From Candidatus Omnitrophota bacterium (lineage in GTDB: Bacteria > Omnitrophota > Gorgyraeia > Gygaellales > JAQTUX01), in assembly GCA_028707125.1 (NCBI GenBank), contig JAQTUX010000001.1:1130438-1194437 (forward strand): a stretch of 64,000 nt of DNA, read 5' to 3'. Positions within the stretch are counted from its first letter, which is position 1. Each line of letters starts with the position of its first letter. The position numbers and the translations under genes are program-made. Under the pieces are notes generated by a model, which was not told the origin of the DNA, did not search any database, and worked only from the letters and a program-made list of their open reading frames with translations. Shown piece by piece: positions 2,214 through 49,783 of the stretch.

Positions 2214-3197
2214 TTACATATGCATAAAGCCGTTCTTCCTGCATATCCCGCAAACCGTGGTTATCTCTCCGCTTTTCCCTATGATCTCTTTTCTCGCGCG
2301 GATATACCCGGTATTATTCCATACCTGACGGATGCCGGCGTTGTTGATATTGCCTATATTGTATTGATCGCCATAGACGGCGCAGCAGGGAAAAACATCG
2401 CCGTTCCAATTAATGCTTATCTCCTGCCATGGCTTCCTGCAGGCAGTGATCACCTTTTTCGTCGTGCAGGTATCCTTATTGTAAGCGCTGTATTGAGGGT
2501 TATCCGGTATCCACGCCAGGTCTTTCCTGATCGCCTCATCCTTAGGCCTGAGTATCTCATCCTTCATTGTGACGCGCATCTTGCCGACCCTGAAATTCAC
2601 TCCTATTTCTTCCGCCATCTTTCGCGCCTTCTGGACCTCATGTTCATTATGCTTGAAGACAATGAAATTCCATACCAGATCGACCCTTCCCCCGGACTTC
2701 CTGTTCTCATCCGCTATAAACTTCATGTTCCTCATAACCAGGTCAAAGTCGCCGTCAACCCTGTATTTCCCATATGCCTGGGGCGTGGCCCCATCGCAGG
2801 AGATGATCACTTCATCAATGCCGGACCTGACCAAGTCCGCCAACAATCGGTCATCATTGATATTAAGGTTGGTGCTGGTAATTATCCTCATCCGCTTATT
2901 TCGCAAACGCGCGTATTCCACCATTTTCACAAAATCTTTATTTAAAAGCGGCTCGCCCCAGCTGTAAAAATTCAATACCTCAAGATGCGGCGCCAATTCA
3001 TCAAGAATCTTCTTAAAGGCGGCAAGGCCCATAAATCCCTTTTTCATTGACTTGTCGCCGGATCCGGTGGGGCAAAGCGGGCATTTAAGATTGCAGACGT
3101 TACCCGGCTCAATATTCAATATATGAGGCATATAGGGCAGGCGGCAGATCCTGGTCGCCTTAAAGAACTTCGCCCTTCTTTTATATATCTTGAACAT
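2214..3197 (-). CDS. Radical SAM protein with C-terminal SPASM/twitch-like Cys cluster
   Basis: CNLKCPLC (CxxxCxxC) is near the N-terminus. C-terminal cysteines CCAVYG...CGIC are present. The function is unknown. Confidence 0.7.
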   Translation of the reverse strand: MFKIYKRRAKFFKATRICRLPYMPHILNIEPGNVCNLKCPLCPTGSGDKSMKKGFMGLAAFKKILDELAPHLEVLNFYSWGEPLLNKDFVKMVEYARLRNKRMRIITSTNLNINDDRLLADLVRSGIDEVIISCDGATPQAYGKYRVDGDFDLVMRNMKFIADENRKSGGRVDLVWNFIVFKHNEHEVQKARKMAEEIGVNFRVGKMRVTMKDEILRPKDEAIRKDLAWIPDNPQYSAYNKDTCTTKKVITACRKPWQEISINWNGDVFPCCAVYGDQYNIGNINNAGIRQVWNNTGYIRARKEIIGKSGEITTVCGICRKNGFMHM

Positions 3198-3230
3198 GGA
3201 TATATCCCGGTAATTGAATCATCCTGTATA

Positions 3231-3270
3231 GAATAAAAAATCGGCCCGGCCATTGTTAAGCCGGAGCCAT
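3231..3270 (-). terminator. Rho-independent terminator downstream of the 3537..4298 gene
   Basis: Minus-strand GGCTCCGGcttaacaatgGCCGGGCC hairpin followed by GATTTTTTATTC. Confidence 0.45.
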
Positions 3271-3536
3271 AATCACACATCGCTAATTTCCAATCCGAGC
3301 CTGCGTCCTCCCTGAAATAAACGTTTATGATTAAGACCGTAGTGCCAAGATTATGGTGAACAGTATAATTGGTATTGACTGAGAAACTTTGAGGGCCTGA
3401 ATCATAAAACTTTAATGCCGAGCCCTGCCAGACAGGGATCTCGCCTGATATCTGTAATACCCGTCCGTTATCGCCCTTTCTTAAATTCTGCTATCCATTA
3501 TTATAATAACGACCTCATTAAGAAACAACCTCCTTA

Positions 3537-4298
3537 CTAAATCTTTGCCAAGGCCTTAATCCCTCTCTCTGTTTTGACTCTAAGTTTTGAAGCGCGGGAA
3601 TCGCTGGGCTCTACTAAGACAATTGCGTAAGTAGTACCATCTTTGTGGACTCTTAAAGGAGAGGTCAAAACCCCAGCTGGTTCGCAGGCAATTTTTACTG
3701 CTTCTGTGCCGTCATAAAGACGTAGCCCGATATCAACACTACCCCAAGCTTGAAGTTCATAAATACGAGCGCTGCTCCATCTAGTCTCATTACCGTGCCC
3801 ACCGGTATTGGTAGATATCCAAATTCTTACTCCTGAGCAGTTGAGATTAAGGTCTATGTTCTGCCGTCCGGAATCTTGATGCGTTTGGACATCGCCATCA
3901 TCATCATTTCTGCAATCGCTAAAGGAAGTGTATGGACCGGTAAAATCCTTCCATTCAGAACCGTCAAGATACTGAACCTTTGCATAAGTATCTATTCCCG
4001 GGCTGTTGTCGGCGTATGAATAAGCGTCTAAACCCCATCTAAAAGATAAGCGGGATATCCTGTAATCCTTATTGAAGATATGAGTGGAGCTGGTTTCGTA
4101 ATATCCTCCCCCGCCATAGTTTCCTGCCTGAGGAGTGTCAAAATCACCATCTATCGAGATAGGTCCTGCGCCTACATTTGTCCCTACATATGTATGTGTT
4201 GTGGCGGGTAATGTGACTATATCGGTATCGGCCTGTACATATCCCGCTAATACTATTGATCCGAACAAAACAAATAGAAAAGAGATAATCTTCTTCAT
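3537..4298 (-). CDS. Secreted hypothetical protein, possibly with a discoidin/F5-8 type C-like domain
   Basis: Signal peptide MKKIISFLFVLFGSIVLAGYVQA. The start is taken at the internal Met to avoid overlap with the upstream gene. The C-terminal region has RISRLSFRW...ARIYELQAWG, reminiscent of galactose-binding-like domains. Weak. Confidence 0.5.
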   Translation of the reverse strand: MKKIISFLFVLFGSIVLAGYVQADTDIVTLPATTHTYVGTNVGAGPISIDGDFDTPQAGNYGGGGYYETSSTHIFNKDYRISRLSFRWGLDAYSYADNSPGIDTYAKVQYLDGSEWKDFTGPYTSFSDCRNDDDGDVQTHQDSGRQNIDLNLNCSGVRIWISTNTGGHGNETRWSSARIYELQAWGSVDIGLRLYDGTEAVKIACEPAGVLTSPLRVHKDGTTYAIVLVEPSDSRASKLRVKTERGIKALAKI

Positions 4299-6623: not shown

Positions 6624-7028
6624 TTACTTTGTGTACCAACTACCACAAAAGATATCTTCAACTATACCATCTTTAAAAGTAACCGTACAATTTGGAGCTA
6701 AAGTTTGCAATAAAGCCCCCTTGTAATACCAAAAATCGTAGTCTTTCCTGTTCCCATCTTCTCTAATCTGATCTTTGGAATAATAGTATATGTCGTTAGG
6801 AGCACCCCAAGATGCTCTCACATCAACTTTTGTCATACCCCTTATAACTCTTCCTTCAATAATGGCCTTTTTCGTTTCGGGAGATAATGCTGGCTGACTC
6901 TGTATATACTCTTTCTTTAAAGCTATGCTGGGTTTCCCCATAGGTCCCGCCGCAGAACAACCTTCAATTACTATCATGGCTAATGATATAACGGCAATAA
7001 AGACGGTACTGGTTTTATCCTCTGCCAT
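6624..7028 (-). CDS. Small lipoprotein, putative immunity protein for the upstream RHS toxin
   Basis: Signal peptide with lipobox-like ...IEGCSA. It lies immediately 3' of the RHS gene (6-nt gap), which is the canonical immunity position. Confidence 0.45.
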   Translation of the reverse strand: MAEDKTSTVFIAVISLAMIVIEGCSAAGPMGKPSIALKKEYIQSQPALSPETKKAIIEGRVIRGMTKVDVRASWGAPNDIYYYSKDQIREDGNRKDYDFWYYKGALLQTLAPNCTVTFKDGIVEDIFCGSWYTK

Positions 7029-7034
7029 AAGATT

Positions 7035-10000
7035 CTATTGAAAATAACGTACTTGACTATTAGGCCCTATGCCATACCAATCAGGATAACCGGATTTATC
7101 TAAAACTGCACTATTAAATGTAGAACAAACATACTGACCAGGCAACATGCCATAAGTAATCTTTTCTTTAGCTAAAGACTTGGCGGCATCAATAACATAC
7201 TGATTGCGACGGAAGCGATTAGAAACATATGCCTGGCGTTTTGAATAGCCTTTTTCAATATTAACTATACCGGTTCCAGTTTCCCAAGTTGAATGCGCCA
7301 TTTCTGTTTTATTTAACATAATCCCTGTATGAGAAAAAATCCCCCCTTCAAATAAAGCTATGCCCCATCCAATAGCGCTATCTGGTTTAAAAAATACGAC
7401 ATCTCCTCCTTCAAGATTTTGTTCTCCTAAGCTTTGCGTAGGTGTAGCAAGTATCCCTCCCACAGTCTGCCCCAAAGAATGTAAACCGCCTTCCCGTGCT
7501 CCCTCGCCAAAATCTCCACCCAGAATCTCAGCAGACACTCCACCGGCAACGATTTCCGCTCCCAGTGGCCAAACACTACCTCCAATATAACCAATTGTCC
7601 CGCCAGCAAATCCTGCTAAAGCGCCTAGGCCAACATCACCTCCCAGCATTGCTGAAGCAGCTGCTCCGGCGCCAGCGCCGCCTAAAGCAGAAGCTGCTAA
7701 TCCAGACCAAAACCCACCTCCCCAGACCGCGCCAACTCCCGCACCTATCCCAAAACCTACTAAACTACTGGCAAACCCTATGCCAAAATTCTGAGCAAAA
7801 TTGCCACGTTGGCTACTGGCAGCAATTAGGCTATATGTTGCCATCCCTAAAAAAGGATTACCAGTAGCGATACCAACAACAGTACCTACAATAGCAGCGA
7901 CAAATCCACTGATCTTTTGCCAAAACTTCTTGAACCATCCGTATCCGCTGGGATCCACATAGTTAATGGGATTATTACGGCAATAAGCGTAACGATTCAG
8001 ATCCTGCGGATCATACGGATGCTGTATTGTCGGATCAGGCGTAATAAATCTGCCAATATACGGGTCGTAATACCTCGCCCCATAATAATACAGACCGAAT
8101 GAATCAAGTTCTTTGCCGGTGAAGTGGTAGTTGGTGGCGGACTCAACGCTCGTTTGTTTGGCGAACGATCCGTATGGCGTATATTCGTTACGCTCTATTG
8201 TCTCTCCGGACTGGTTGGTAATCACATTGCTTGAACCGAGGTGGTCTGAATGGTAATAAATCCTCTGTCCATTTGTGATGGTGCAAATCCTGTTTGAGCC
8301 GAGGAAGACGTGGAATTTAACTGCTCTCTCGCCTCCTGTTGTCTCTTCAATCTCATAGGCAGAGCTAAAATAAGTCGTGGTTGAGCCCGCGCTGATCTTC
8401 TTTATGCGCTCGGTAGATACGCCATATACGAAGTTAGTGCGGCTGCCTTGCGCATCTGTAATTTCTGTAAGCCGGTTATCGTAATCATATTCCATATTAC
8501 GGCCTGCGCCGGAGGTCATATTGCCGTTCAAATCGTAAATATAAGAGTATTGCCCTGCTGATGTTACCGCGTGCGGAAGGTTACCGTCGTAGCGCAGCGC
8601 GCCGACATCGGACTTGTAGGTCATATTACCGATTGAATCATACCTGTATTCCAAGCTTCGGAATGTCCCCGGGAACTGCGGGTCAGGTATATTCTCCGCT
8701 GCCACCAGCCGGTCTAAATCATCGTAGCGGTAGGCGCGGGTTTTATGGTCCGGCAGCATTTCATCGCTAATAGAGGCAACGTTTCCGTTATTATCAAAAT
8801 CATAAGTGAGTTTTTGGATAAGACGGTCAGGGCTGTAGGTATTGATCTCCTTGAGGCGCAGGTCATCTCCGTAAGCATATCTGGTATGGACTCTGTTCCC
8901 AAAATCCACATCATGCATTTTACCCTGGGCATCATAGGTAATGTCGTAGGCGTAAGCGCGCTCCCTGCCCCTTACCATCTCCAGCAGGCCGGAATTACTA
9001 TCGTAAGTATAACTAAGGGTTTCAGTATCGTCAGGATACTGAACCTCAGTAACCCTGCCCAGGATATCGTAAGCGGTCTTGGTTACATAAGTATGCCCGT
9101 CGATAATCTTTCTCGCTTCCTCCGTCCTGCCTTCATTATCATAAAAATATATTGTCTGGTATTCGTTGACATCGGTTACCTTGGTGATCCGGCCGATGCA
9201 ATTTGAATCGTCTATTTGCGGGTCATCATAGGTATCGTAAAGGTATTCTGCCGCGACTTCGCCGTTGTAAATCTTTTGTCTGAGGCGGTTAAGCTCATCA
9301 TAGCGCAATTCAATGGCCTGTCCCTTATTATCGGTCTGGAAGCGCAGGTTGCCCATTTTGTCATATTCATAAGAGGTCAACCCTGTATCCGGGTCGTTCA
9401 GCGAACTCTTCCTTCCCAAGGAATCATACTTTATGTCTGTCGTATTCCCCTTATTGTCAATCACCCGCACAAGGTTATTCTGCGAGTCAAATTGATATTG
9501 GGTGCGGTAATAGCCCCTTCCTGAATCAAAATAAAGCGGCGCCTCCATATTATCGGTGTTTCTGACAAATTCCCTGATCTCCGTAGTGTTGCCGAAGACA
9601 TCCTTGACCGCGCCCTTTCTGTTGCCTCTGGCATCCTCTGTTTCGACATAAGAAACGGTTTTATAGAACGTCCTTGCTGTGGCGTCCTTGCTTGAACCCG
9701 GGAAGTCGGCAGTTACAGAGACCGCCCTTGAGCGCAAGTCATATTCGTATCTGGTATAGGAGATATTGGCCGGCTGCTCATCAAAGTAATGCGGCAGTGA
9801 CTCTGCCTGCACAAACCCGCGCCGGTTATAATAGGTCTCTGTGGCAATATCCCGCCTGTTGTCGCCGTCCTCTCCGTTTGAAACGGCTTTATATTTACGG
9901 CCCAGGCCGTCAAAGTGTTCGGTCGTGACCAGATTAAGCTGGCGGGTGATCTTTGTCTTAAAATCAGGATACTCGTAGGCAGCTACCACTTCCGCGTCTG

Positions 10001-13000
10001 TATTCAATTCTTCAACAAGCCGCCCCAGAGAATCATAATTTGTGGTAGTCGTATGGCCGTTGGCATCTGTAAGTTGATGCACAGCGCCGAATTCAGGATA
10101 ATAGGAATAAGATACTGTATGTCCGAGTTCGTTACTTATGCTCTGCGGGAAGGTGTAAAATTCGGTTTCATACGCGGTATCTACCGCCTTGAGGTTGGCG
10201 TTTATTGCGCGGATAACGTTACCGTAATCATCGTATTGATATTCTGTGGACGGGCTGTCTTGAGGGTCGGTATTCAACCAGGCGATTTCTTTCTTTAACA
10301 GGCCGTCATCATAATACTCAAAGTCCTTACGCGATACTTGGATGCCTTGCTCGTCTTTCAATACTGCATAGTGAACGTTATTAAAACCGACTTCATACGG
10401 AGCATTATATACGGTTATGCCTTCTCTTTCATCGCCCGTGGTCTGGCCTTCTATCTCACTGCCTGCCTGTCCTACCTCGCCGTAACTTATCTCCCGCGCT
10501 ACATTACCCAGTCCATCGTACTCAAATCCGCTCTTTAATGTAATAGACGTGGCCGTATCCTCATATTTTTCATAGGCAGTGGTAAGGACTTCTTTCAGGT
10601 GCGGGAAGGCAATGCCGTCTTGCGGCCCTGCCTTTGCCACTTCCCAGGTATTTATAACCTTGCTTACCAGTTTAGGCGTGATAGACCTGCCGTAGTCCTC
10701 ATAGGCGTAGATCTCCTTGATTTGGCCCTTTAAGGGAACTGTTTCTTCTATCTCACCAAGGTAGAAATACGTCTGTGTATAGTTAAGCGTAACAGGGTCT
10801 ATTGAAGTTACCTTGCCAAAACCGCGGAATTCGCGCTCAACAGCATCATAGTAACCCTGCTCAAACTTAAATTCCTGTGTATATGAATTTGACCTGTCCA
10901 CATCAAAACCAACATCCGATCTGTTAGGATAATAATCGCGCTCTATCGTATCGGTGGTAGTCACCTGACGCGTTATATATAAAGGAAACGGCAAGGCCAA
11001 TTTCTCATCCTGCCTGGTATAGTCATATTCAACGGAGACCAGGCCGCCTTTGCCGTTGTTGACCTCTACCAGAAGATCCGCGGGTCTGCCCGTGCTGGTC
11101 CTCACCGACCATCGCTGCAGGCCGGGCCTCTTTTTATCATACAGCGCGGCGTCGGCAATGCCATCACCATTAATATCAAGGGTGGTGGGCGACTGATCCT
11201 TTGAGCTGGAATAATTGATCCATACGCCGCTGTCGCCATTGAACGCGCTGCCGGTATTTATCGCCTGATGCCAATCCGAGCCGCCTTCAGGCAGATAACC
11301 CACGTCTGTTAAACCATCATTATTAAAATCGGCAACGAAGGCATCTTCCTTAACGGAAAATCCGGAAAGCCAGGTGCCCCTGTCTAAAAACTGCCTGTTA
11401 TTGGAAAGGGCCACCCTGAATTCACCGCTGGTTTTCTTAAATATACAGATGTCTGCCAGGGAATCGCCGTTAAAATCGCCTACCAAGGGTGTCCATTCCT
11501 TGCTTGAGCCAAACCCGCTGATCCACTGCGTAAATCCGGAAAACCCTGAGCCGTTGCCTAACGCAACCCTGGCCTCCCCTGATTCCCAGTTATAAACCCC
11601 AAAATCAGTAAAGGCATCTCCGTTAAAATTGCCGGTTAGAGGCGCCCAGTCATTGCCTGCTTCGCTGAATGCAGCCCATTCGCTTGCGCCTGTAAAAGAC
11701 GACTTGGTAGATGTAGCAATCTTTAATTTGCCGTCCTTATAATTATATACACCTGCATCCCCTACGCCGTCTCCGTTAAAGTCGCCGCCTATGGCAATCC
11801 AGTCCTCGCCGCCAAAGCCGGTCAGCCAGTCACTTACATACCTAACCTCGCCTGCCTCTGAAAGCCCGATTTCCCACTTTCCGTCTTCGGGATTATACAG
11901 CCCTAAATCGCTAAGCCCGTCGCCGTTAAAGTCGCCGCCTATCGGCCGAATTTTATTATCGGGCTCCACAACGTTAAAATGTATGATATCAGACAAAACA
12001 GAACGGCCGTCATCGGTCTCTATCTTAACCTGGATTGTCTCGTTATTACTTACTGCGCTGCCTGCGTTGGTAGTTACGGAGAACTCTGCACCCACAGCAG
12101 TTCCTGAAGCAATCTCTGTCCCGTTCTTCAGGATGGTATAAGTCATACTACGGCCCTCGGGGTCGTAGGCATTAATCATAATATCAAAACTCTCATTCAC
12201 CAGGAATACATAGGGGTCCCTGTTTAAACTCACGCTAACCTCAGGCAGTAGCGAGACATTCAATACCGTAATCTGCACATCCTGGGAAACATCGGCAAAG
12301 CCGTCAGAGGCAACAATCGTTACGATATAAACTCCGGCGTCATTATAGGTGGTCTGCCACCTTCCGTCTGATTCAATGGCCGCGCTCTTGCCTTGCTCAT
12401 TCTGACGAGGAACAAAAGAGTAAACAATGGTATCGCCGGTATCCAAGTCCTCAACTACAGGGCTTATAGTAAACAGCTCGCCCTCATTGGCAGTTAACTC
12501 AACGTCCTGTCCGCTGACATTGATACCGTTAATGCTTACGAAGCGCGGAATCCGGTTAACCCTCTCAACGATAATGCGGAAATACTGCTCGTGATAGACC
12601 TCTGCGGTAACGCTGTCTACCAACTGCACGCTGACCCGTTCATAAATATAATTCCCGTGCCCGGGAGGCACCCTCCAGGTATTCTCACCTATCATCTCCC
12701 AGTCAGTTAAGGGATAACTAAAATTGAACGCATAGTGGTCGCCTTCCCTGGGATTTAAAATCTGCGGGCTAATAGTTATCTCTGTGCCTGCCGAGACCCT
12801 AATTTCATCAATAGGGGCAATCAGCGGCGTAGGACTAACCTGTAAAGTTACGTCGTTGCTGTATACAATATTGCCGGCACTATCTTCCGCGATAAACCTG
12901 ACTGTTTCGCTTCCTAAAAAGTCAGCCGGCTGGCTGAAGCTCACCAGGTTTTCCTGGTTAATCGTAATAACTATCCGATTGTTCCCGCTGAAGGAATACT

Positions 13001-13403
13001 GCAGGGCATCGCCTTCCGGGTCCTGAAAGTAATCATCCAGATCAAAGGCGTTGGGATAATCTGTACCGATGTCCCATGATATAGGGGCTATCTGACGGAT
13101 AAGCACAGGCGGGCTGTTATAGATCAAAGTAGGAATAAAACCTGCGCTAAGGCGGTAGTTTAAGCTTGAAGCAGCGCCTATAAACGGCTCGCCTGCGGAA
13201 TCTAATTGTATTTTATTGTTGAGAGAGCCCTTGCCTGAACCGCCCTCATTGATCGATGAGGACTGGAGCCGGTAATTTAAGCTGGCGGCAACGTCGGCAA
13301 GCGCGTCATTAATAGGGCCGAATGCGGCTATATGCAGAAAGATGAGCGCGATCGCTATCGCGCGCCTTGTTAAACTAAATTGTTTTGACCAGAAAAACTC
13401 CAT
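7035..13403 (-). CDS. RHS-repeat polymorphic toxin (TcC-like), 2122 aa: signal peptide, Ig-like region, FG-GAP/VCBS repeats, YD/RHS repeats, RHS core, glycine-zipper segment, C-terminal toxin domain
   Basis: Repeated GDFNGDG...D.G.YN FG-GAP units and many YD repeats (YEYDGLGN, YDSLGRL, YDELNRL). The RHS core ends in GARYYDPYIGRFITPDP...NYVDPSGYGWFKK. A Gly-rich zipper region follows. The C-terminus carries GDVVFFKP...FSHTGIM...YVCSTF, which suggests a permuted papain-fold (YiiX/LRAT-like) hydrolase. Confidence 0.85.
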   Translation of the reverse strand: MEFFWSKQFSLTRRAIAIALIFLHIAAFGPINDALADVAASLNYRLQSSSINEGGSGKGSLNNKIQLDSAGEPFIGAASSLNYRLSAGFIPTLIYNSPPVLIRQIAPISWDIGTDYPNAFDLDDYFQDPEGDALQYSFSGNNRIVITINQENLVSFSQPADFLGSETVRFIAEDSAGNIVYSNDVTLQVSPTPLIAPIDEIRVSAGTEITISPQILNPREGDHYAFNFSYPLTDWEMIGENTWRVPPGHGNYIYERVSVQLVDSVTAEVYHEQYFRIIVERVNRIPRFVSINGINVSGQDVELTANEGELFTISPVVEDLDTGDTIVYSFVPRQNEQGKSAAIESDGRWQTTYNDAGVYIVTIVASDGFADVSQDVQITVLNVSLLPEVSVSLNRDPYVFLVNESFDIMINAYDPEGRSMTYTILKNGTEIASGTAVGAEFSVTTNAGSAVSNNETIQVKIETDDGRSVLSDIIHFNVVEPDNKIRPIGGDFNGDGLSDLGLYNPEDGKWEIGLSEAGEVRYVSDWLTGFGGEDWIAIGGDFNGDGVGDAGVYNYKDGKLKIATSTKSSFTGASEWAAFSEAGNDWAPLTGNFNGDAFTDFGVYNWESGEARVALGNGSGFSGFTQWISGFGSSKEWTPLVGDFNGDSLADICIFKKTSGEFRVALSNNRQFLDRGTWLSGFSVKEDAFVADFNNDGLTDVGYLPEGGSDWHQAINTGSAFNGDSGVWINYSSSKDQSPTTLDINGDGIADAALYDKKRPGLQRWSVRTSTGRPADLLVEVNNGKGGLVSVEYDYTRQDEKLALPFPLYITRQVTTTDTIERDYYPNRSDVGFDVDRSNSYTQEFKFEQGYYDAVEREFRGFGKVTSIDPVTLNYTQTYFYLGEIEETVPLKGQIKEIYAYEDYGRSITPKLVSKVINTWEVAKAGPQDGIAFPHLKEVLTTAYEKYEDTATSITLKSGFEYDGLGNVAREISYGEVGQAGSEIEGQTTGDEREGITVYNAPYEVGFNNVHYAVLKDEQGIQVSRKDFEYYDDGLLKKEIAWLNTDPQDSPSTEYQYDDYGNVIRAINANLKAVDTAYETEFYTFPQSISNELGHTVSYSYYPEFGAVHQLTDANGHTTTTNYDSLGRLVEELNTDAEVVAAYEYPDFKTKITRQLNLVTTEHFDGLGRKYKAVSNGEDGDNRRDIATETYYNRRGFVQAESLPHYFDEQPANISYTRYEYDLRSRAVSVTADFPGSSKDATARTFYKTVSYVETEDARGNRKGAVKDVFGNTTEIREFVRNTDNMEAPLYFDSGRGYYRTQYQFDSQNNLVRVIDNKGNTTDIKYDSLGRKSSLNDPDTGLTSYEYDKMGNLRFQTDNKGQAIELRYDELNRLRQKIYNGEVAAEYLYDTYDDPQIDDSNCIGRITKVTDVNEYQTIYFYDNEGRTEEARKIIDGHTYVTKTAYDILGRVTEVQYPDDTETLSYTYDSNSGLLEMVRGRERAYAYDITYDAQGKMHDVDFGNRVHTRYAYGDDLRLKEINTYSPDRLIQKLTYDFDNNGNVASISDEMLPDHKTRAYRYDDLDRLVAAENIPDPQFPGTFRSLEYRYDSIGNMTYKSDVGALRYDGNLPHAVTSAGQYSYIYDLNGNMTSGAGRNMEYDYDNRLTEITDAQGSRTNFVYGVSTERIKKISAGSTTTYFSSAYEIEETTGGERAVKFHVFLGSNRICTITNGQRIYYHSDHLGSSNVITNQSGETIERNEYTPYGSFAKQTSVESATNYHFTGKELDSFGLYYYGARYYDPYIGRFITPDPTIQHPYDPQDLNRYAYCRNNPINYVDPSGYGWFKKFWQKISGFVAAIVGTVVGIATGNPFLGMATYSLIAASSQRGNFAQNFGIGFASSLVGFGIGAGVGAVWGGGFWSGLAASALGGAGAGAAASAMLGGDVGLGALAGFAGGTIGYIGGSVWPLGAEIVAGGVSAEILGGDFGEGAREGGLHSLGQTVGGILATPTQSLGEQNLEGGDVVFFKPDSAIGWGIALFEGGIFSHTGIMLNKTEMAHSTWETGTGIVNIEKGYSKRQAYVSNRFRRNQYVIDAAKSLAKEKITYGMLPGQYVCSTFNSAVLDKSGYPDWYGIGPNSQVRYFQ

Positions 13404-13405: not shown

Positions 13406-16400
13406 TTAATTCTCTGTTGCCCTCTGGTAATTAAATGTAAGCGCCGGAAAACTCTTGCCGTCGCTGCCGTATTGAGTAACGCTCTTAAGCAATGAGCGGG
13501 ATGTGTCGTCGCTTAAGACATATTCCAACTCATACCTCCAGATTAACCTTGCGTCCAGCAGGACGCGGATGCGCTTAAGCCGCTTATTTATACTGATCTC
13601 CTCCCCGCTGATAAAGCTGGAGGTTACATCAGGCCTGTCTTCGGTCTCAAACTCCACCCTGTGCTTGGGCGCAAAGCCGGCCACGTCGTTACCGGTATAT
13701 TCAACGCTATTGAGATACGCCTTACCTTTATCCTTTATATAATTAAATCTCACATAATTTGCCTTGGTATCCTTGACCTTGGTTACATACCAGGTAAACG
13801 TCCCTCCCGAGCCGTTCTCTTTTGATTCAGGAGTCGCGCCGAATTCCATAACCGTGCCGTTCTTCTCTACGCTGCGCCAGGTATCCGCCTCCTTGTAGAA
13901 CCTGGTAAAGGTTGACTCTATCTTTGCCTGCCAGACGTTATCGGTCAGATGCACCAGCTGCGTTGAGGAGCTCTGGGTGCGGAATACAAAGGTGTCGCTG
14001 TCGTCGTAACGAGCAGGGCCTTTTCGTGTATCCCTGACAATGTATCCCGGCTCAAGCGACCAACCCATGCCTGCCCAGGAATTGGAGCCGGTTGTGCGGT
14101 ATTGCAGAGTTAAATTCGGCTGCATTCCTTTTCTTCCCGGAGGCACGGTTATAGGTACGGAATGACTGAAAGAGCCGGTAAGCATATCAGGCAGAGGGAT
14201 CATTGTGCTTGCGCCGACAGGCGTGCTGGGAGGAGTAAGATTTCCTATGATCGCGTAAGTTGAGAAATGGCCTAACTGGAAAGACGCCTTACCGTAAGAG
14301 TCAACAACCAGGTTTTGCACGGTCTCCATTACCCTGCTTGACTCATTGTAATAGCGAAGTTCTAACGGTGTGCCCGGCACTTCGTGCTGAACAACTGTTA
14401 CCGTCAGCGGTTGACTAAACTGCAGCCCATCAGGCAGGAATTTTATAGCTGTCTTTACGGCATATCCGGGCACCTTATCTTCAAATGCCGCCTTATCCAG
14501 CAACTGCACCCTCATCTGAGCCCTTTGCTCAGCGCCTAATCGCTCATATGTATCCTGCGGAATATCTATAACTACCTTGCCGTCAAAAAGCTCTACCCTT
14601 CTTCCCTCCACCGTCTCCACAGGCTCATCAGGAGGGGGCGACCTGAACAGCTTTATGCCCGAAATCGTATGGTGGGCTTCGGCATTGCCCGCCTTATCCA
14701 CTGACCAATATTCCAAAATATTATTATCTGATTCGCGGGTGATCTGCGGCTGTCCGTTGGCTGCCACACTAAGAGGGGTGCCTGGATCCACGTTATTTAT
14801 GATATAGTAGGTATCCCTGACACCGGAGGTGGCGTCTTGCGTGCTAAGAGGTATAGCAAGGGAAACCCCGTAGTAGGCGCGGGAAGCATCAAAATCTGTG
14901 CTTGTAACCGGGGCGGCGGTATCCAGGATTATATTCTTAGATACAGCATCAGACCAGGCATCTGACTGTCCGGCCCTATTATCGCTTACCCTCACATATA
15001 CCGTCTTCACGCCATCGCCGGAAGCCAAGGCCCAGTTCTTTGTCCGCGCAAATGATTCAGGAACAGACCATGAGTCACCATCATTAGAAAATTGTATCTG
15101 ATCAAGCCCTGTTTGATCATCCCTTGCCTCTATGTTAAGCGTGACTTGTATGCTATTGGTATATTGGGCATCGCTGTTGATACTGAAACCTGTAATTACA
15201 GGGACTATTCTGTCAAGAATAGCAAAATACCACTGTATTTTAGATATATTACCGGCGAAGTCGCTGATGGCCAGATCTATACTGTAAAATATAGAAAATC
15301 TCAATGGCTCCGCGGGGGCGTAAGAGATGATGTCGCCTTCCACTGCGGGCACAACTACTTCTGTTGACGGTTCGACCCTGTCTAACGGCCCAACAACGCT
15401 GAGCGTCATCTCTATGCCGCCGTAATTTACCCCTGAAAGGCCGTCGCCGCACCTCGCGCTAACCGTGGGGGTCTCTTCCAGGAAAGTAACAAGCCAATCC
15501 AGAAGGTTTGTTATCTGAGGCGCTGTCTTATCCAGCTTTATGCCCTCTATTATATGATGGGCTTCTTCATTACCCGCGTTATCCACCGACCAGTACTCCA
15601 ACCTGTTATTAGCGCCTTCTGCGGTAATTACCGGCTGTCCGTCTACCCCTACGGATCTCTGAGGCCCATTGTTGACTTTATAATAAGTATCTGACACTCC
15701 TGATGTTGGGTCTGCCGCGGTCAAATCTACGGCTATATCTGCATTATGCCATGGCTGGCTGTCAAAACTTGTGTTTGTTATCGGAGGGGTCGTATCAAAT
15801 ATGATCGTCTGGGTCAGCATCTCTGACCAGTTACCCGCCTTGTCGCTTACCTTAATAGATACGTTCTTCTGGCCGTCTCCGGGATGCAGGCCCCATCGCC
15901 AACTCTCTTTAAAGTCGTAATCCGGGCTCCAAGACCTGCCCATATGATTTGAAATCCGCATTTGAGCCAGGGCGCCGCTATCATCATTCGCCGCGATGCT
16001 AAGGGTCACCAATCTGTCATTGGTATACTCAGCGCCGTTGTTTATGAGCAGCGACGTAACTACGGGGGGCGCAGTATCAGGTGGCTCATTGGTGCGGAAT
16101 GTAAGGTCGCCTGACTCCTCGGTATTACCGGCCAGATCAGTTACTACTATCTTAAAATGATAAAGGGTGCCTGGCGTTAAGCCCTCCAGGAGCGCTGAAT
16201 TGCTGCGGGTGAACGGCCGTCCGTTTGCGGTCTTTCCGTAATCCTGAGTCAATCCGTAATGGACAACTCCACCGGCCGCCTCGGAAGTCGCCCAGTTGAT
16301 CTCTATATGCGTCTCTCCCTGGTTTGCGAAATAAATCTGCCGTATGTCCGGAGCGGTCTTATCGATCACTACGCCGTCTGAAGGAAGCGACCACCGCGAG

Positions 16401-16792
16401 CTATAGCTCAATGCCATGATGCTTGATACTATTCTTACGCGGTATCGGTATGAGGACTTTGCTGTCTTGGGCGAGGCGGAATTATAAAATGTATCGTGCG
16501 TGTAAGTAAGCGTGCGCCAGACGGCGCCATCTATTGATTCCTGTAATTGATAAAGCGGGTTGCGTGCGGGTATTTCTGTTTCAGGCCTCATCCAGTAAAC
16601 AACATATGTACCTGAACTGGAATCTATATCAAAGCCGCCTTGCTGCCGCGCCTCCTGAGGCGCGGCAGGGACATAATCTCCGATCGCGTCTTCAATGTCG
16701 TCAGCGAAAGCGCTTACACAAGAAGTAAAAAATAAAAGGAAAACAGCTAATAATGCTGTCTTCCTTTGAGTGTCTCTAACCTTAAAAGGCAT
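13406..16792 (-). CDS. TcB-like protein, 1128 aa: signal peptide, fibronectin-III-like domains, C-terminal SpvB (Salmonella virulence plasmid 65 kDa B protein) domain
   Basis: N-terminal signal MPFKVRDTQRKTALLAVFLLFFTSCVSAFA. Repeated FN3-like blocks (TAPDI...HYGLTQDYG...LTPGTLYHFKIV; ILDTAAP...YWSVDKAGNAEAHH). The C-terminal region IPLPDMLTGSFSHSVPITVPPGRKGMQPNLTLQY...GMGWSL...VEYTGN matches the SpvB/TcB N-domain. Its stop lies 2 nt before the RHS gene start. Confidence 0.75.
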   Translation of the reverse strand: MPFKVRDTQRKTALLAVFLLFFTSCVSAFADDIEDAIGDYVPAAPQEARQQGGFDIDSSSGTYVVYWMRPETEIPARNPLYQLQESIDGAVWRTLTYTHDTFYNSASPKTAKSSYRYRVRIVSSIMALSYSSRWSLPSDGVVIDKTAPDIRQIYFANQGETHIEINWATSEAAGGVVHYGLTQDYGKTANGRPFTRSNSALLEGLTPGTLYHFKIVVTDLAGNTEESGDLTFRTNEPPDTAPPVVTSLLINNGAEYTNDRLVTLSIAANDDSGALAQMRISNHMGRSWSPDYDFKESWRWGLHPGDGQKNVSIKVSDKAGNWSEMLTQTIIFDTTPPITNTSFDSQPWHNADIAVDLTAADPTSGVSDTYYKVNNGPQRSVGVDGQPVITAEGANNRLEYWSVDNAGNEEAHHIIEGIKLDKTAPQITNLLDWLVTFLEETPTVSARCGDGLSGVNYGGIEMTLSVVGPLDRVEPSTEVVVPAVEGDIISYAPAEPLRFSIFYSIDLAISDFAGNISKIQWYFAILDRIVPVITGFSINSDAQYTNSIQVTLNIEARDDQTGLDQIQFSNDGDSWSVPESFARTKNWALASGDGVKTVYVRVSDNRAGQSDAWSDAVSKNIILDTAAPVTSTDFDASRAYYGVSLAIPLSTQDATSGVRDTYYIINNVDPGTPLSVAANGQPQITRESDNNILEYWSVDKAGNAEAHHTISGIKLFRSPPPDEPVETVEGRRVELFDGKVVIDIPQDTYERLGAEQRAQMRVQLLDKAAFEDKVPGYAVKTAIKFLPDGLQFSQPLTVTVVQHEVPGTPLELRYYNESSRVMETVQNLVVDSYGKASFQLGHFSTYAIIGNLTPPSTPVGASTMIPLPDMLTGSFSHSVPITVPPGRKGMQPNLTLQYRTTGSNSWAGMGWSLEPGYIVRDTRKGPARYDDSDTFVFRTQSSSTQLVHLTDNVWQAKIESTFTRFYKEADTWRSVEKNGTVMEFGATPESKENGSGGTFTWYVTKVKDTKANYVRFNYIKDKGKAYLNSVEYTGNDVAGFAPKHRVEFETEDRPDVTSSFISGEEISINKRLKRIRVLLDARLIWRYELEYVLSDDTSRSLLKSVTQYGSDGKSFPALTFNYQRATEN

Positions 16793-26462: not shown

Positions 26463-26852
26463 CTATTCCCCTCCATAAAAATCAAGTATTTTTCCATTGG
26501 TTCGATCAATAAAGATTATTGCAATCCCTCCTAGCATCGGCTTTTTTGGTATATATGAAACTACCCAATACTTTCTTCCATCATTATGCAGCTTCCTGAT
26601 TTTTTCTTGTAAAATAATGGGAAAAAATGAATCGACCTCCTCCCAGGCCATCTCTTCATTATCGGCTGTTATCTTCAAATCGTTTTCGGATAAAGAATCG
26701 CCTCTTCTTTCTAACTCTTTATTTCCTATCCCTATTGCTTCTTCTAAAGTTATCATTAACCCCTCTTCCTGTAATGCATTTGAAATTTTGCCCGAGCAAC
26801 CAGAGATAGATAGGACTAACATAACAGCTAAAGATAATTTTAATAGTTTCAT
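26463..26852 (-). CDS. Lipoprotein, putative immunity protein for the RHS DUF4329-like toxin
   Basis: Signal peptide plus lipobox LSISGCSG. It overlaps the RHS stop by 4 nt. Homologous to 25146..25532. Confidence 0.55.
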   Translation of the reverse strand: MKLLKLSLAVMLVLSISGCSGKISNALQEEGLMITLEEAIGIGNKELERRGDSLSENDLKITADNEEMAWEEVDSFFPIILQEKIRKLHNDGRKYWVVSYIPKKPMLGGIAIIFIDRTNGKILDFYGGE

Positions 26853-29800
26853 TTTTTATTAGATGTCCCTTCTTTCAATCCTATCGGTTCTGTGATCTCT
26901 TCTTTTGAATGATCATATTCCTTCTTATTACCACTTGGTGTAATGAGATACCCATCTACACCATTACTATCAGCATAAGGTACATCGCCTTGCCATGTGG
27001 CCGTTCTGCGGTCATAATAGTTTGAAAAGTTCTCATCATCATAATCTGGGCCGCTTTCCGCACCATGAGAATGATAATATGCAGTCCCATTAGGTGGTTT
27101 ATGACCGGGATCCGAACTGTGAGCTGAACCTTCTCGAGGAGGAGTATATGAATACGTTCCATCGCTATTACGATATATCCAACCGGCGTTTTCTCTGTCC
27201 TTCCTTACTGATGGCTCGTGGATATCGTTGAGAGCATCATTTGCAGCATCATCTTGCGTAGGATACCTATCTCCTGGCCTATATCCCCAAGGGTCTAATA
27301 AATTTACAGGGTTGTTGCGAACATACTTATAAAGATTAGAGCCGTCCATGTAATCAAAGGGATCCCTCTGCAAGAACCTCCCCAGCATTGGCGAGTAGTG
27401 GCGAGCCCTGTAGTAATACAGCCCTGTCTCAAGGTCATACTCCCTGCCGGTGAACATGTAGGGATTGCCGATGGATGAGGCAGTGGATGGCTTGCCGTAG
27501 GCGTCGTAGGTGTAGGATTCAACGGTTGAGCCGGATGAGTCGGTGAGAGCGGTCACGCTGCCGAAGCCGTCAAAGTGGTAATAGCAGCGGAGGTTTAAAC
27601 CTCCGCTACCGATCATACAGATCGGTTCATCAATACCTGGGCCGTAGATGTATTTCTTGGTTGGGTTGCCTTGGTCGTCATACTCGGCGATGATTTGGTC
27701 GCCGTCGTAGAGGAAGTTGGTGGTTTTGCCATCGACGGTCTTTGAGGTGCGCCTGCCAAAGGGGTCGTATGTGTAGATTGCTTCCCCGCCAAGATTCGTG
27801 GCGGGTCGCAATGACGATGCGCTGATTAGACGGTTCTCGTAGTCATAGGCGTAGGCGAAGCTGCCGTCATTAGCCAGGTTGCCGTTTGCGTCATAGGCGT
27901 AGTTAGTTGTGCCGACTTTTGTGTATTGGTTGAGGTTATTGGTGGTGTAGTTTGTCGTGCGGTTGCCTGTCTCATCATAGTCGTAGGCAGTGTCAAAGAA
28001 GGCAAAGCCGTCAGGGTAGTTGACGGCTGTTAGCTGGTAGGTCTTATCATATTCATAAGAGTGGTCGCCCTGTTCTGTCTGCATTGTCAAGCGGTTACCC
28101 GCGTTGTCGTAGGTGTAGGAATAGGGGTTAGGTATAGAGTTAGAGACATTGGTAAGGGTTGTCAGGCGGCTGGCTGGGTCATAGTCGTAGAGAGAATAGG
28201 TGTTGTTGGGATAGTCAAGCCGCGTCCTGCGGGAGAGGGGGTCGTAGGTGTAGGAGGCGACGGCCCCGCTTTGCCCCATAAATGGAGCAACTACATTAGT
28301 GAGACGGTTGAGTTCATCATATATATAGGTAATGTAGGTATTGTCCGGATATGTTAGTTTAGTACGATTGGAATTGGCGTCATATTCATAAAAGACGGAT
28401 TTATTGCCGGGAGAAGTTACCTTGCTGACGCGGTTGGCTGTATCATAGTCGTAATGTAGTGTTCCGGTTTGATCAATAATATCAAGCAGCCGGGAGCCGA
28501 TGTCATACACGTAGTCAACGCTTGATTTATCAGGATAGGTCTTTAAGTCCAGCCGGTTAAGCGGGTCATAGCCGTAGCTGATGATCTGGCCTTTGGGGTC
28601 TTTCTTGGCTGTGAGGTTGGAACTGAAGTCATAGGCGTATTCCTCTTTTGAGCCGTCAGCATAGGTGGTAGAGATGGGCCGGTCAAAGCTGTCATAGGCG
28701 TAGGTTGTGGTATTTCCTTTGGAGTCGGTAATTTCTTTGAGGTTGCTGTTTGCGTCGTAGGAGTATTCGGTAGTGTTGTCTGCGGCGTCGGTTACCTTCC
28801 ATAAGAGGTTACGTTCATCATATTCGTAGCAGGTAGAGTTGCCTTCTGCGTCCTCTACCTGGCTGCGGTTGCCGTTGGCATCGTAACTAAAGGTGGTGAT
28901 ATTGCCTAATTCGTCTTTTACGGTCTCTATACGGTCTAAAAGATCATAGGTGTAGTAGGTTGTCTGCCAGGGGTTATCCGTCTCACCTGTCTGCCTGCGG
29001 AGTTCAATCAAGTTATCATTCTCGTCATATTTATAGATGGTTTCGTAGTTAAAAGGCGGGCTGGATATAGCTTTAATCAGGTTATTGTGGCTGTCGTATT
29101 CAAAGGTGGTGGTGTTGCCTCTGGGGTCTGTCGTTGTCTTGAGGTTGCCTGCAGTATCATAGGTAAACTGGGTAGCGATGTTAAGAGCACCCTGTGCAGC
29201 GGTTGTCTTGATTAAGTAGCCGGTATCAGGGTTGTATTCGTAGGTAGTTACATTGTTATTGGAGTCGGTTACGCTTGTGAGCTGGCCAAAGGTATTGTAG
29301 GTGAAGGTTACCTCTGGCGTCCTGCCTGAGACAGCCGGATAGGTTATGTTTGTGAGGTTGCCTTTTGAGTCGTATTCATAGGTGGTGGTGCTGCCTTTGG
29401 GGTCGGTTGCGGTCTTAATCTGGTTAAAGCTCGACTCATAGGTAAAGGCAGTTACTATGTCATTTGCAGGGTCATTACTGTCAGGGGTGTTGGCTTTCTT
29501 ACGCCTGATTTCTAAGATGTTCCCCTTGTTATCATAGGTGTATTTGACCCAGTTGCCTCTGGGAGAGGTTATCCTGGTGCGCTCGCGGCCCTGGTTGTAT
29601 TCGTATTTGGTCTGATAATAAGAAGTGCCGGTATAATACTGCCTCTGGCTTTTTACTGTGCCGTTGGAATTGAGTTCGTATTCTGTCTTAAAACCCCTGG
29701 GGTCAATAAGGGTAGTGAGGTTGGTCTTGTAGGTAAATTGGTATTTGCCGCCTGCGTAGACAAGTTCCTTGACGCGGCTGTCCTCATCATACTCCAAAGA

Positions 29801-30673
29801 TAGGTATTGGCTGCCTCGGGCATCGGCGATAGAGGTTAGCCGGTGTTTATCGTCATAGGTATATACGGTGGTTGTGCCTGCGGGATAATCCTCTGTGGGA
29901 GGAGTAGTTACATAGATTGGGTTGCCGTCTGAATCGTATTCATATGAAGTCAGGCGGCCGCTGAAGTCCCTTAGCCGGCTTACCTTATGTTCAGGATTAT
30001 AGGTAAACTCAATAAAGCGGCCTGAACTGTCGCTAACCTTACTCAATACGGCTGTTTGCGGGTCATACTCCAGAGAGATGACATTATTGTTTCGGTCGGT
30101 AATTGAATTCAGGCGGCCTTCTAAGCCAAAACGATAGATTAAACCGTGCTTATCATGGATAACATAGCCGCCTGCCTCTTTGGTCAAAGTATCGTAACAG
30201 CCGGCAGGAGCTGTGTAAGAGCCGTCGGAATTCTGCAGGAACTTGTCCTTTGAGCCGTTGGCATTGCGCCTTAGAACGTAATCCTCCCTACCGTCTGAAA
30301 ACTCCAACAGGAAGATGTTGTAACTGTGGCTTGTGCCTATGCCAAATGGGCCCTCGTAGGCATCTAAACTACTGTAGAAACGCCTTATCTCTAAGGGGAG
30401 GCCTCGTGAGGGGACAAATAAGTCCTTATTTTGGTAGAAGAAATTACCGTTTGAGATGTCAACAGGGTCTGCTGCCTCTGTCCTGTTCTTCTGGTTTATA
30501 TCAGGGGGCTGGGCCGCTGCAGCGTCTGAGGCGTCTACTCCGCCCTCCCCGGAAGCAAGCGAGGCGTCATTCCAACAAGGAAGCTCGGCAAATGCTACTG
30601 GAGATAGAAAAATATTAAAGGCAAAGAAGAAAAGCGTAAATACCGAGATAACCTTTAAGAGGCGGCTATTCAT
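26849..30673 (-). CDS. RHS-repeat protein (1274 aa) with C-terminal DUF4329-like toxin domain
   Basis: Signal peptide and dozens of YD repeats. The RHS core ends ...YYYRARHYSPMLGRFLQRDP...NLLDPWGY. The tail GWIYRNSDGTYSYT...AYYHSHGAESGPDYDDENFS...DGYLITPSGNKKEY resembles DUF4329, as I recall it. Confidence 0.8.
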   Translation of the reverse strand: MNSRLLKVISVFTLFFFAFNIFLSPVAFAELPCWNDASLASGEGGVDASDAAAAQPPDINQKNRTEAADPVDISNGNFFYQNKDLFVPSRGLPLEIRRFYSSLDAYEGPFGIGTSHSYNIFLLEFSDGREDYVLRRNANGSKDKFLQNSDGSYTAPAGCYDTLTKEAGGYVIHDKHGLIYRFGLEGRLNSITDRNNNVISLEYDPQTAVLSKVSDSSGRFIEFTYNPEHKVSRLRDFSGRLTSYEYDSDGNPIYVTTPPTEDYPAGTTTVYTYDDKHRLTSIADARGSQYLSLEYDEDSRVKELVYAGGKYQFTYKTNLTTLIDPRGFKTEYELNSNGTVKSQRQYYTGTSYYQTKYEYNQGRERTRITSPRGNWVKYTYDNKGNILEIRRKKANTPDSNDPANDIVTAFTYESSFNQIKTATDPKGSTTTYEYDSKGNLTNITYPAVSGRTPEVTFTYNTFGQLTSVTDSNNNVTTYEYNPDTGYLIKTTAAQGALNIATQFTYDTAGNLKTTTDPRGNTTTFEYDSHNNLIKAISSPPFNYETIYKYDENDNLIELRRQTGETDNPWQTTYYTYDLLDRIETVKDELGNITTFSYDANGNRSQVEDAEGNSTCYEYDERNLLWKVTDAADNTTEYSYDANSNLKEITDSKGNTTTYAYDSFDRPISTTYADGSKEEYAYDFSSNLTAKKDPKGQIISYGYDPLNRLDLKTYPDKSSVDYVYDIGSRLLDIIDQTGTLHYDYDTANRVSKVTSPGNKSVFYEYDANSNRTKLTYPDNTYITYIYDELNRLTNVVAPFMGQSGAVASYTYDPLSRRTRLDYPNNTYSLYDYDPASRLTTLTNVSNSIPNPYSYTYDNAGNRLTMQTEQGDHSYEYDKTYQLTAVNYPDGFAFFDTAYDYDETGNRTTNYTTNNLNQYTKVGTTNYAYDANGNLANDGSFAYAYDYENRLISASSLRPATNLGGEAIYTYDPFGRRTSKTVDGKTTNFLYDGDQIIAEYDDQGNPTKKYIYGPGIDEPICMIGSGGLNLRCYYHFDGFGSVTALTDSSGSTVESYTYDAYGKPSTASSIGNPYMFTGREYDLETGLYYYRARHYSPMLGRFLQRDPFDYMDGSNLYKYVRNNPVNLLDPWGYRPGDRYPTQDDAANDALNDIHEPSVRKDRENAGWIYRNSDGTYSYTPPREGSAHSSDPGHKPPNGTAYYHSHGAESGPDYDDENFSNYYDRRTATWQGDVPYADSNGVDGYLITPSGNKKEYDHSKEEITEPIGLKEGTSNKK
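27359..27573. repeat. Direct repeat copy B (inside the RHS core coding region)
   Basis: Identical to 26046..26259. Confidence 0.85.
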
Positions 30674-43760: not shown

Positions 43761-43788
43761 TTAAGTCGCCATTCAAATTAAATATAAA

Positions 43789-43865
43789 TCATCAACTTCA
43801 AAACCCTAAACACTAAACTCTAAACACTAAACAAACCCAAAACATAAAACACAAAACTCAAAACA
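43789..43865. repeat. G-free AC-rich tract (CTAAAC/AAAC low-complexity) flanking the four-helix-bundle gene
   Basis: ~77 nt with no G on the plus strand. Complementary in composition, and partly in sequence, to the GT-only tract at 44196..44270. Confidence 0.7.
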
Positions 43866-44225: not shown

Positions 44226-44270
44226 TTGGGTTTATTTAGAGTTTAGGGTTTCGGGTTTAGTGTTTGTTTT
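44196..44270. repeat. C-free GT-rich tract, inverted partner of 43789..43865
   Basis: ~75 nt with no C on the plus strand (ggttttgggttttgagtttggg...gtttagggtttcgggtttagtgtttgtttt). It overlaps the first 10 codons of the gene. Confidence 0.7.
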
Positions 44271-44275
44271 ATTGT

Positions 44276-47190: not shown

Positions 47191-47198
47191 ATTTATTA

Positions 47199-47432: not shown

Positions 47433-47443
47433 ACAAATCCTCC

Positions 47444-49780: not shown

Positions 49781-49783
49781 CGG

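Follow-up and report, generated by a model that had tools for sequence, protein, structure and literature searches.

A conserved glycine-zipper module between the RHS core and the toxin tip in RHS proteins of Omnitrophota

Two RHS proteins with a glycine-rich segment behind the core

We analysed a window of 64,000 nucleotides from a Candidatus Omnitrophota bacterium (assembly GCA_028707125.1, contig JAQTUX010000001.1, positions 1,130,438 to 1,194,437; coordinates below are those of the window) that encodes two large RHS proteins, RHS1 and RHS2. In both, a glycine-rich segment, here called the module, lies between the RHS core and a C-terminal toxin tip. Sequence comparison identifies this segment as a conserved domain, and we moderately favour its being a membrane-insertion or delivery domain carried by the released toxin fragment.

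RHS1 (7035..13403, minus strand) comprises 2,122 amino acids according to its open reading frame (ORF) and translation, and runs from a Sec-type N-terminus through Ig/PKD domains, an FG-GAP propeller, a TcdB_midN region and the RHS cage to the module and the tip, with Pfam matches to RHS_repeat, TcdB_toxin_midN, FG-GAP and Big_9. RHS2 (59520..>64000, minus strand) runs past the end of the window; its 1,492 visible residues comprise DUF6443, an inserted Laminin_G_3 domain, the RHS cage, the module and the tip. The RHS-associated core of RHS1 (7944..8183, minus strand; residues 1741-1820) ends in VDPSG, the presumed autoproteolysis site. The NCBIfam model TIGR03696 matches this core with 83.7 bits over model positions 1-75 of 76 and that of RHS2 with 80.4 bits over positions 1-76 of 76, with DPSG and DPTG, respectively, as the last matched residues. 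The glycine-rich segment thus starts exactly at the core end, confirming the initial annotation, made from the sequence alone, in placing it behind the canonical RHS DPxG site, where it would form the start of the fragment released by the aspartyl-protease site.

Both proteins leave the core via ...NNPINxVDP(S/T)G(Y/H)GWFKK, which reads DPSGYGWFKK in RHS1 (residues 1817-1826, with GWFKK at nucleotides 7940..7926) and DPTGHGWFKK in RHS2 (GWFKK at 60425..60411). The whole module occupies 7443..7955 (minus strand) in RHS1, where it has 171 residues, a mass of 16.3 kDa and a grand average of hydropathy of +0.67, and 59982..60440 (minus strand) in RHS2, where it has 153 residues and a mass of 15.0 kDa and closes with the conserved end GGLIEGSYLGGYQTFAHG. 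The span initially assigned to it in RHS1, 7630..8000, takes in just the end of the core plus the module's initial two-thirds. The fragments behind DPxG measure 306 residues and 31.3 kDa in RHS1 and RHS2 alike, and their last 135 (RHS1) and 153 (RHS2) residues form ordinary polar domains. These tips proved unrelated, as had been proposed: BLASTP finds no similarity between them and their fold matches also differ.

A third RHS protein of the window (26849..30673, minus strand; 1,274 residues, DUF6531 and RHS) carries a 148-residue polar DUF4329 tip directly after DPWG, and no Gly-zipper module lies between the two. The glycine-rich segment is therefore no general trait of RHS ends, even within the same genome. 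An Imm-NTF2-2-type immunity gene (26463..26852, minus strand) lies downstream.

Shared and family-specific parts of the module

The initial annotation had regarded the whole segment, DPxG(Y/H)GWFKK and the glycine-rich part together, as one module common to both proteins, which held for the first 50-75 residues and failed for the remaining 90-100. BLASTP of the post-core regions with composition-based statistics aligned residues 1-44 only (43% identity, E = 4e-8). Profile-profile comparison of the two module families extended the match to about 75 columns (query columns 1-81; probability 98.8%, E = 1e-16), and a richer profile of 66 sequences covered about 53 columns (query 1-53). Homology over the whole module was rejected, as local and global hhalign runs and the 66-sequence profile all gave the C-terminal halves a probability of about 1% or less. 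With these residues unalignable, the common part consists of the first helix-turn(GN)-helix hairpin together with the W-F-K-K-F-W stretch that precedes it, located at 7725..7955 (minus strand; residues 1817-1893) in RHS1, where DPSGYGWFKKFWQK is followed by a helix, the GN turn and a second helix, and at 60213..60440 (minus strand) in RHS2, where DPTGHGWFKKHFGK is followed by the first hairpin and GNWGG. The C-terminal 90-100 residues of the RHS1 module are family-specific (YSLIAASGQGGNFG, GGDVGLGALAG, GADAVAGG, GGDFGEGA; alignments A1 and A4), and the later helices of the two modules represent two separate families. Together with the further kinds described below, such post-core Gly-zipper regions look like members of one superfamily, in which the first hairpin is common and the later helices diverge.

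A check for the GWFKK motif behind other RHS cores had been suggested. Its general pattern does recur: the post-core consensus of 57 relatives reads DP[TS]G[HY][SG]W[FW][KS]KF[WF], position +7 is aromatic in 51 of them, and 50 have a basic residue within positions 7-14; the exact pentapeptide occurs in nine.

Glycine-zipper spacing and predicted structure

Beyond its first ten residues, the module is 27% (RHS1) or 31% (RHS2) glycine, and charged residues make up about 5.6% (9 of 161 and 8 of 143, respectively). Glycine pairs are enriched at lag 4 (observed/expected 1.68 and 1.43 for the two modules) and depleted at lag 2. Composition-preserving shuffles gave 9.9 expected zipper patterns for RHS2, where 20 are observed (P = 0.0005), and 11.2 for RHS1, where 18 are observed (P = 0.017). 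The i/i+4 glycine spacing and the zipper motifs of the (G,A,S)xxxGxxxG type thus exceed what composition yields in both modules, and the glycine-zipper character initially ascribed to the segment stands.

AlphaFold2 (AF2) predicts nothing but helices in both modules, with lengths of about 14-34 residues. Five helices are predicted for RHS2 (6-28, 31-50, 53-86, 88-113 and 118-144; predicted local distance difference test, pLDDT, 41-79) and seven for RHS1 (residues 4-170; pLDDT 43-64).

Database models did not recognize the module. In an hmmscan of both 306-residue fragments against Pfam with E-values up to 10, it remained without a match, Gly-zipper_Omp/YMGG/OmpA, Rick_17kDa_Anti, PT-TG, PT-VENN and PT-HINT included, and the sole hint was a weak one to NLPC_P60 in the RHS1 tip. 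No NCBIfam model matches it, and searching 177,635 PDB sequences with the module profile (alignment A3) returned nothing at E-values up to 10, likeness to solved RHS toxin fragments (Tse5-like, SGS1) included.

Conservation, distribution and exchange of tips

Within each family, the module is strongly constrained. The RHS1 type has 33 invariant columns among eight sequences (A4) and a length of 165-171 residues; the RHS2 type has 13 invariant columns (A3), among them F88, G91, G95, E98, G100, F104, Y143, Q148 and H152, keeps a constant length of about 150 residues and ends in a strongly conserved GGLIEGSYxAGWQxxxHG. Module identity equals or exceeds tip identity in 14 of 14 orthologue pairs (for example 87% versus 49%, and 68% versus 51%). 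A search of 1.84 billion representative proteins with the RHS2-type profile recovered 98 clusters, and in every match with upstream sequence (about 55 relatives) the module starts at the RHS core end.

This record bears directly on whether the region is a low-complexity linker, with the likeness between RHS1 and RHS2 stemming from common Gly/Ala richness. The C-terminal 90-100 residues are what such a linker would look like, being unalignable beyond composition and losing their BLAST similarity once composition-based statistics are applied. A fixed length, many invariant non-glycine residues, identity above that of the enzymatic tip within each family and 98 clusters in 1.84e9 proteins, consistently behind an RHS core wherever upstream sequence exists, speak against it. 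The initial annotation had named homologues with linkers of variable length and no conservation as the finding that would overturn its claim; what emerged was constant length, invariant residues and conservation at least matching that of the tips. The linker explanation is thus largely refuted, and we consider it very improbable.

The tips behind the RHS2-type module are diverse. Eighty-two of them, 130-185 residues long, fall into 27 BLAST-distinct clusters, and representatives of ten clusters gave no significant Pfam match. The RHS2-type module is accordingly a constant region that at least 27 unrelated tip families have in common. Orphan cassettes at locus L012 (2009..2494 and 3180..3647; also at L013) start inside the module (MEFGLGGFGSGFG...) or about 20 residues before its end (...AGAAIGAVTGAVIEGSYRAGWQDKLHG), and each carries a different tip followed by its own small polytopic membrane ORF. 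Their start within or near the module end places the polymorphic junction of the RHS2 family at that end (GSYxAGWQxxxHG) and not at DPxG. Searching with a module-only alignment of the RHS1 type recovered same-tip or truncated proteins only. The earlier designation as a pre-toxin module is therefore apt for the RHS2 type, with its 27 clusters from 82 tips, and not for the RHS1 type, which was seen with one tip.

Among species-representative genomes, the module occurs in Candidatus Velamenicoccus archaeovorus LiM, in metagenome-assembled genomes (MAGs) of Omnitrophota and in MAGs labelled Planctomycetales or Planctomycetia, as well as in one 'Actinomycetota' and one 'Desulfobacteraceae' MAG, labels that may reflect binning. 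Full-length carriers are proteins of about 2,100 residues combining SpvB, FG-GAP, TcdB_midN and RHS, that is, TcB-TcC-like cages. In the window, an ORF of 1,128 residues that has fn3/Ig domains and, at its C-terminus, an SpvB domain (13406..16792, minus strand) stops 3 nucleotides before the RHS1 start, and the two ORFs (13406..16792 and 7035..13403, both minus strand) together correspond to a split TcB-TcC-like protein. Locus L026 shows an equivalent split (a 338-residue SpvB ORF, then the RHS ORF), and in proteins P0032, P0035 and P0066 SpvB is fused into one polypeptide.

Glycine-rich post-core regions of other kinds were also encountered. The RHS toxin end at L018 (3..1115) has a third kind (DPTGYSWKSFWKSFVG..., GGVSSYQTGGWSG), and P0094, P0096, P0098 and P0101 have a fourth, which ends in SQQFxNWQ and precedes a papain-like tip (TNC..WAL).

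Tips and candidate immunity proteins

The RHS1 tip (7038..7442, minus strand; 135 residues) is predicted to adopt a permuted NlpC/P60 papain fold of the YiiX/YaeF-like kind, with a conserved histidine (FSHxG) and cysteine (KVCST). Its AF2 model has a pLDDT of about 65-94 across most of the tip, and the best Foldseek matches are 3kw0, 2if6 (YiiX), MepS/Spr and HRASLS3, at weak E-values and probabilities of up to 1.0. Weak hints to YaeF (NCBIfam) and NLPC_P60 (Pfam) lie in the same direction. Six nucleotides downstream of RHS1 follows a candidate immunity gene (6624..7028, minus strand) for a protein of 134 residues whose hydrophobic N-terminus, followed by G-C, is lipoprotein-like; its 19-residue Kyte-Doolittle hydropathy (KD19; classical threshold 1.6) peaks at 2.28 at residue 9. 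A homologue occupies the equivalent place at L011 (5494..5865, after P0005). An impression that the candidate is 'BamE-like' was dropped, as Pfam and NCBIfam models lent it no support. The exported, lipoprotein-like character predicted for the candidate points to a periplasmic site of action for the tip.

The RHS2 tip (59523..59981, minus strand; 153 residues, isoelectric point 9.8) carries an invariant YLHGTD and belongs to a BLAST cluster of eight tips. It has no Pfam match and no PDB sequence match, and weak Foldseek matches to Tpt1/KptA, CNFy and PARP10/14 (E = 0.3-3, probability 0.66 or lower) give a mere hint that its modelled fold might be ADP-ribosyltransferase (ART)-like. The 184-residue protein P0020 bears the same YLHGTD-family domain behind a Fic-like region (PF02661), with neither an RHS nor a Gly-zipper part, which indicates an autonomous domain moving between scaffolds. 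The candidate immunity protein of this tip (59032..59517, minus strand; 161 residues) is a predicted cytoplasmic zinc-ribbon protein with zinc-ribbon hints from Pfam and NCBIfam, no hydrophobic segment and a KD19 maximum of 0.81. This soluble neighbour suggests a cytoplasmic target for the RHS2 tip.

Across loci, the gene after the toxin falls into three groups. It is predicted to be cytoplasmic for RHS2 of the window and at L007, L008 (where the tip is ART-like), L009 and L012, signal-peptide-bearing or N-terminally anchored at L001, L003 and L023, and polytopic in the membrane at L002, L004, L005, L006, L010 and L026. The module would thus accompany toxins aimed at all three compartments, and for this reason looks like a general membrane-insertion or delivery domain and not like a route to the cytoplasm only. 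Several tips would nevertheless need membrane passage, to judge from the cytoplasmic candidates of RHS2, L007, L008, L009 and L012.

Stand-alone membrane homologues

Six weaker profile matches are not RHS proteins (P0090, P0093, P0097, P0099, P0100 and P0105). These are polytopic membrane proteins of 114-209 residues that share TF.GGF.GG(V/I)IELE and GG(L/I)(I/V)QGSYxAGWQ at the spacing found in the module and end directly after GWQ. Aligned by hhalign, this family matches the RHS2-type module over 107 columns (module residues 46-152) with a probability of 98.3% and E = 1.9e-14. Its helices are classically hydrophobic, with KD19 values of up to 1.9, and we take the homology as the strongest indirect sign that the module itself is membrane-located. 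The membrane location proposed in the initial annotation gains indirect support from this homology, from the predicted helices and from the charge content of about 5.6%; a specific role in translocation to the cytoplasm does not suit every case, as some immunity candidates are exported or membrane-bound.

At two loci, L012 (1324..1770, P0099) and L018 (1669..2298, P0090), the stand-alone protein is encoded third in order, behind the toxin end and the gene for a small soluble protein. A six-frame motif scan found no P0099-like gene in the window, and none is present at L001-L010 or L023-L026. A metagenome scan for stand-alone homologue contexts yielded, among the matches listed, one locus, identical to L017; on the contigs L016, L017 and L019, no neighbours can be seen because of their shortness. 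These arrangements weakly suggest that the stand-alone homologues may be a second, membrane-embedded immunity protein that acts against the module by mimicking its hairpin.

Such an immunity protein would make sense if the module were toxic in its own right, forming pores or depolarising membranes in the manner of Tse5-CT, EsxX or BiTLP-CTD, so that each released fragment would carry two warheads, the module and the enzymatic tip. The third genes of L012 and L018 look like second immunity proteins aimed at the module, and in composition and glycine zippers the module resembles known membrane-depolarising toxins (PMC10684867; PMC12744356; PMC13018210). Neither window locus nor most of the other loci, however, has a module-homologous membrane gene, and immunity candidates follow the tip family and not the module. 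Moreover, no complete protein ends after the module, so that a tip seems obligatory; the matches that do end there are short fragments, members of the stand-alone family or one protein of 2,171 residues, in which the match extends no further than profile position 106 of 153. We therefore judge a toxic module to be unlikely, while ranking it first among the alternatives, ahead of a packaging or threading role in the producer and, last, the low-complexity linker.

Other features of the window

Between the RHS loci lies a surface protein of 2,557 residues (31120..38793, minus strand) with repeated FlgD-Ig domains, one PPC domain and CHU_C / Por_Secre_tail C-terminal sorting signals of the type IX secretion system kind; a small ORF (30666..31103) follows it. 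Also between the RHS loci is a lipid or polyketide-type biosynthesis cluster (42228..56983, minus strand) with three ketoacyl-synthase genes, an SDR reductase, a polyketide cyclase/dehydrase fusion, an acyltransferase, a GMC oxidoreductase and an amine oxidase, flanked by two seven-transmembrane GAF histidine kinases and a response regulator.

Proposed role of the module

We propose that the segment forms the constant N-terminal portion of what the RHS cage would release at the DPxG aspartyl-protease site, the C-terminal fragment. It would be built from a short interfacial stretch of aromatic and basic residues (W-F-K-K-F-W) and then four to seven helices rich in glycine, alanine and aromatic residues, almost uncharged and with i/i+4 glycine faces. 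Before delivery, the TcB-TcC-like RHS cage may shield the module from water, the cargo being 31 kDa in RHS1 and RHS2 as opposed to 16.6 kDa in the third RHS protein, which lacks the module. After delivery and release, the W/K stretch and the Gly-zipper helices would partition into the target-cell membrane, where the module could anchor the enzymatic tip and/or disturb the bilayer sufficiently for the tip to be passed through it. In the RHS2 type, the module would also serve as a constant region, with tip cassettes swapped at its 3' end (GSYxAGWQxxxHG). The model draws on analogy with Tse5, Tde1 and SGS1 for DPxG cleavage, protection by the cage, membrane insertion, and tip anchoring or translocation.

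Several observations weigh against this proposal. The KD19 maxima of the two modules, 1.50 and 1.54, lie slightly below the classical threshold, and AF2 models the module with low to moderate confidence (pLDDT 43-64 in RHS1, 41-79 in RHS2). As RHS1 and RHS2 are homologous over 50-75 residues and alike in composition only over the remaining 90-100, one mechanism for both modules is an extrapolation, and modularity is demonstrated for the RHS2 type only, the RHS1 type having come up with just one tip family. Since the RHS1 tip and several others have immunity candidates that are exported or membrane-bound, translocation into the cytoplasm cannot be the common function, and the proposal leaves anchoring and permeabilisation undistinguished.

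A role confined to the producer would dispense with the target membrane altogether. The module could be an unfolded filler or tether that holds the tip in an unfolded state and positions it in the cage, or a leader that threads the propeller gate or a TcA-like channel. Its occurrence only in TcB-TcC-like large-cage carriers of about 2,100 residues, with the small RHS protein of the window lacking it, fits this idea, as does the mostly disordered state of the cargo of RHS and Tc cages (PMC10684867). In Tse5-CT, order inside the cage is confined to the first 27 residues (PMC10684867), which agrees with the stretch behind DPxG being the most widely conserved portion of the module. A filler, on the other hand, needs no invariant Glu, Tyr, Gln or His, no i+4 glycines and no homology to membrane proteins, and a leader for a TcA-like channel is at odds with a window that has no TcA-like gene. 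We hold a purely producer-side role to be improbable.

[quoted passage not shown] GGLIQGSYxAGWQ) might be decoy immunity proteins mimicking a helix-helix interface. This extension is speculative and, in our estimate, rather unlikely. We know of no description of immunity by toxin mimicry for polymorphic toxins.

How RHS toxins cross the target envelope without a T6SS spike or a TcA channel is poorly understood, and no gene of either kind, TcA-like or T6SS, is present in the window. If the module inserts or translocates alone, it would constitute a compact and directly testable delivery module and would explain how Omnitrophota, many of which are ultra-small epibionts or predators, intoxicate other cells. 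A polymorphic junction shifted 150 residues downstream of DPxG matters for annotating the boundary between toxin and immunity genes, and the membrane homologues beside some cassettes offer a handle on producer self-protection.

Comparison with known systems

A close functional parallel is Tde1, a T6SS DNase of Agrobacterium: delivery and membrane permeabilisation require its N-terminal glycine zipper, catalysis does not (PMC10240207). Consecutive GxxxG motifs of Tde1 extend over a transmembrane (TM)-like stretch N-terminal to an enzymatic toxin domain (PMC10240207), which corresponds to the logic that we propose for the module. Tde1 mutants with an inactive catalytic site were found to lose toxicity entirely. 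The Tde1 region differs in measuring about 60 residues and in opening a small cargo effector, which an adaptor loads onto VgrG and no RHS cage encloses. All Tde1 tips are of the Ntox15 family, whereas our module is common to at least 27 tip families.

For RHS cages, the Pseudomonas aeruginosa Rhs protein Tse5 (PA2684) provides a precedent, as its cage chaperones the membrane toxin Tse5-CT and cleavage is essential for activity (PMC10684867, PMC9637101). Both systems place a hydrophobic, membrane-inserting or putatively membrane-inserting fragment directly after the aspartyl-protease site, which in Tse5 is soluble and disordered in the cage. Tse5-CT (149 residues) is, however, the entire toxin, without an enzymatic tip, and its carrier is a small PAAR-type T6SS Rhs protein. 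Mosquito SGS1 comprises a YD shell, an aspartyl-protease site, 'daisy-chained' predicted TM helices and a Tox-SGS domain (PMC9935623). Its order of parts corresponds to that of our carriers, from the TcB-TcC-like cage and propeller through the autoproteolysis site and a region that in SGS1 consists of about 230-300 residues of predicted TM helices held within the cage to a C-terminal domain. SGS1 differs in being eukaryotic, in having classically hydrophobic rather than Gly-zipper-like helices, in not being polymorphic and in lacking immunity genes.

In layout, the module resembles CdiA-CT and the PT-VENN and PT-TG pre-toxin domains, where a conserved segment separates the scaffold from variable tips and the boundary of exchange lies at the segment end (PMC3482391, PMC9424206); the orphan cassettes of L012, which retain the last module residues, conform to this layout. 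The entry domains of CdiA are soluble and use specific inner-membrane proteins, whereas many of the tips described here appear to act outside the cytoplasm.

The carriers share SpvB, an FG-GAP propeller, TcdB_midN and RHS with the TcB-TcC components of Tc toxins, and their encapsulated C-terminus of about 300 residues approximates the TcC hypervariable region in size. They depart from Tc toxins in the absence of TcA from the window, in Sec-type N-termini, Ig-like domains and downstream immunity genes, and in a hydrophobic N-terminal half of the cargo. To our knowledge, canonical TcC hypervariable regions have no such half.

The initial annotation had called the module no part of the standard description of RHS proteins. 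It is indeed absent from Pfam, NCBIfam and PDB sequences, and is described neither in the 2012 catalogue of polymorphic toxins (PMC3482391), which lists PT-VENN, PT-TG, PT-HINT, W-TIP and annexin as accessory domains, nor in the study of Omnitrophota giant genes (bioRxiv 10.1101/2023.11.21.568195). Hydrophobic or TM-like segments in RHS/YD cages, on the other hand, have already been published for Tse5 (PMC10684867), SGS1 (PMC9935623) and BiTLP (PMC13018210). The principle is thus known, as hydrophobic RHS cargo, delivery-aiding glycine zippers and bipartite toxin C-termini all have published precedents. New are the domain family itself, its use by TcB-TcC-like RHS proteins of Omnitrophota and relatives as a constant region shared by at least 27 tips, and its stand-alone membrane homologues.

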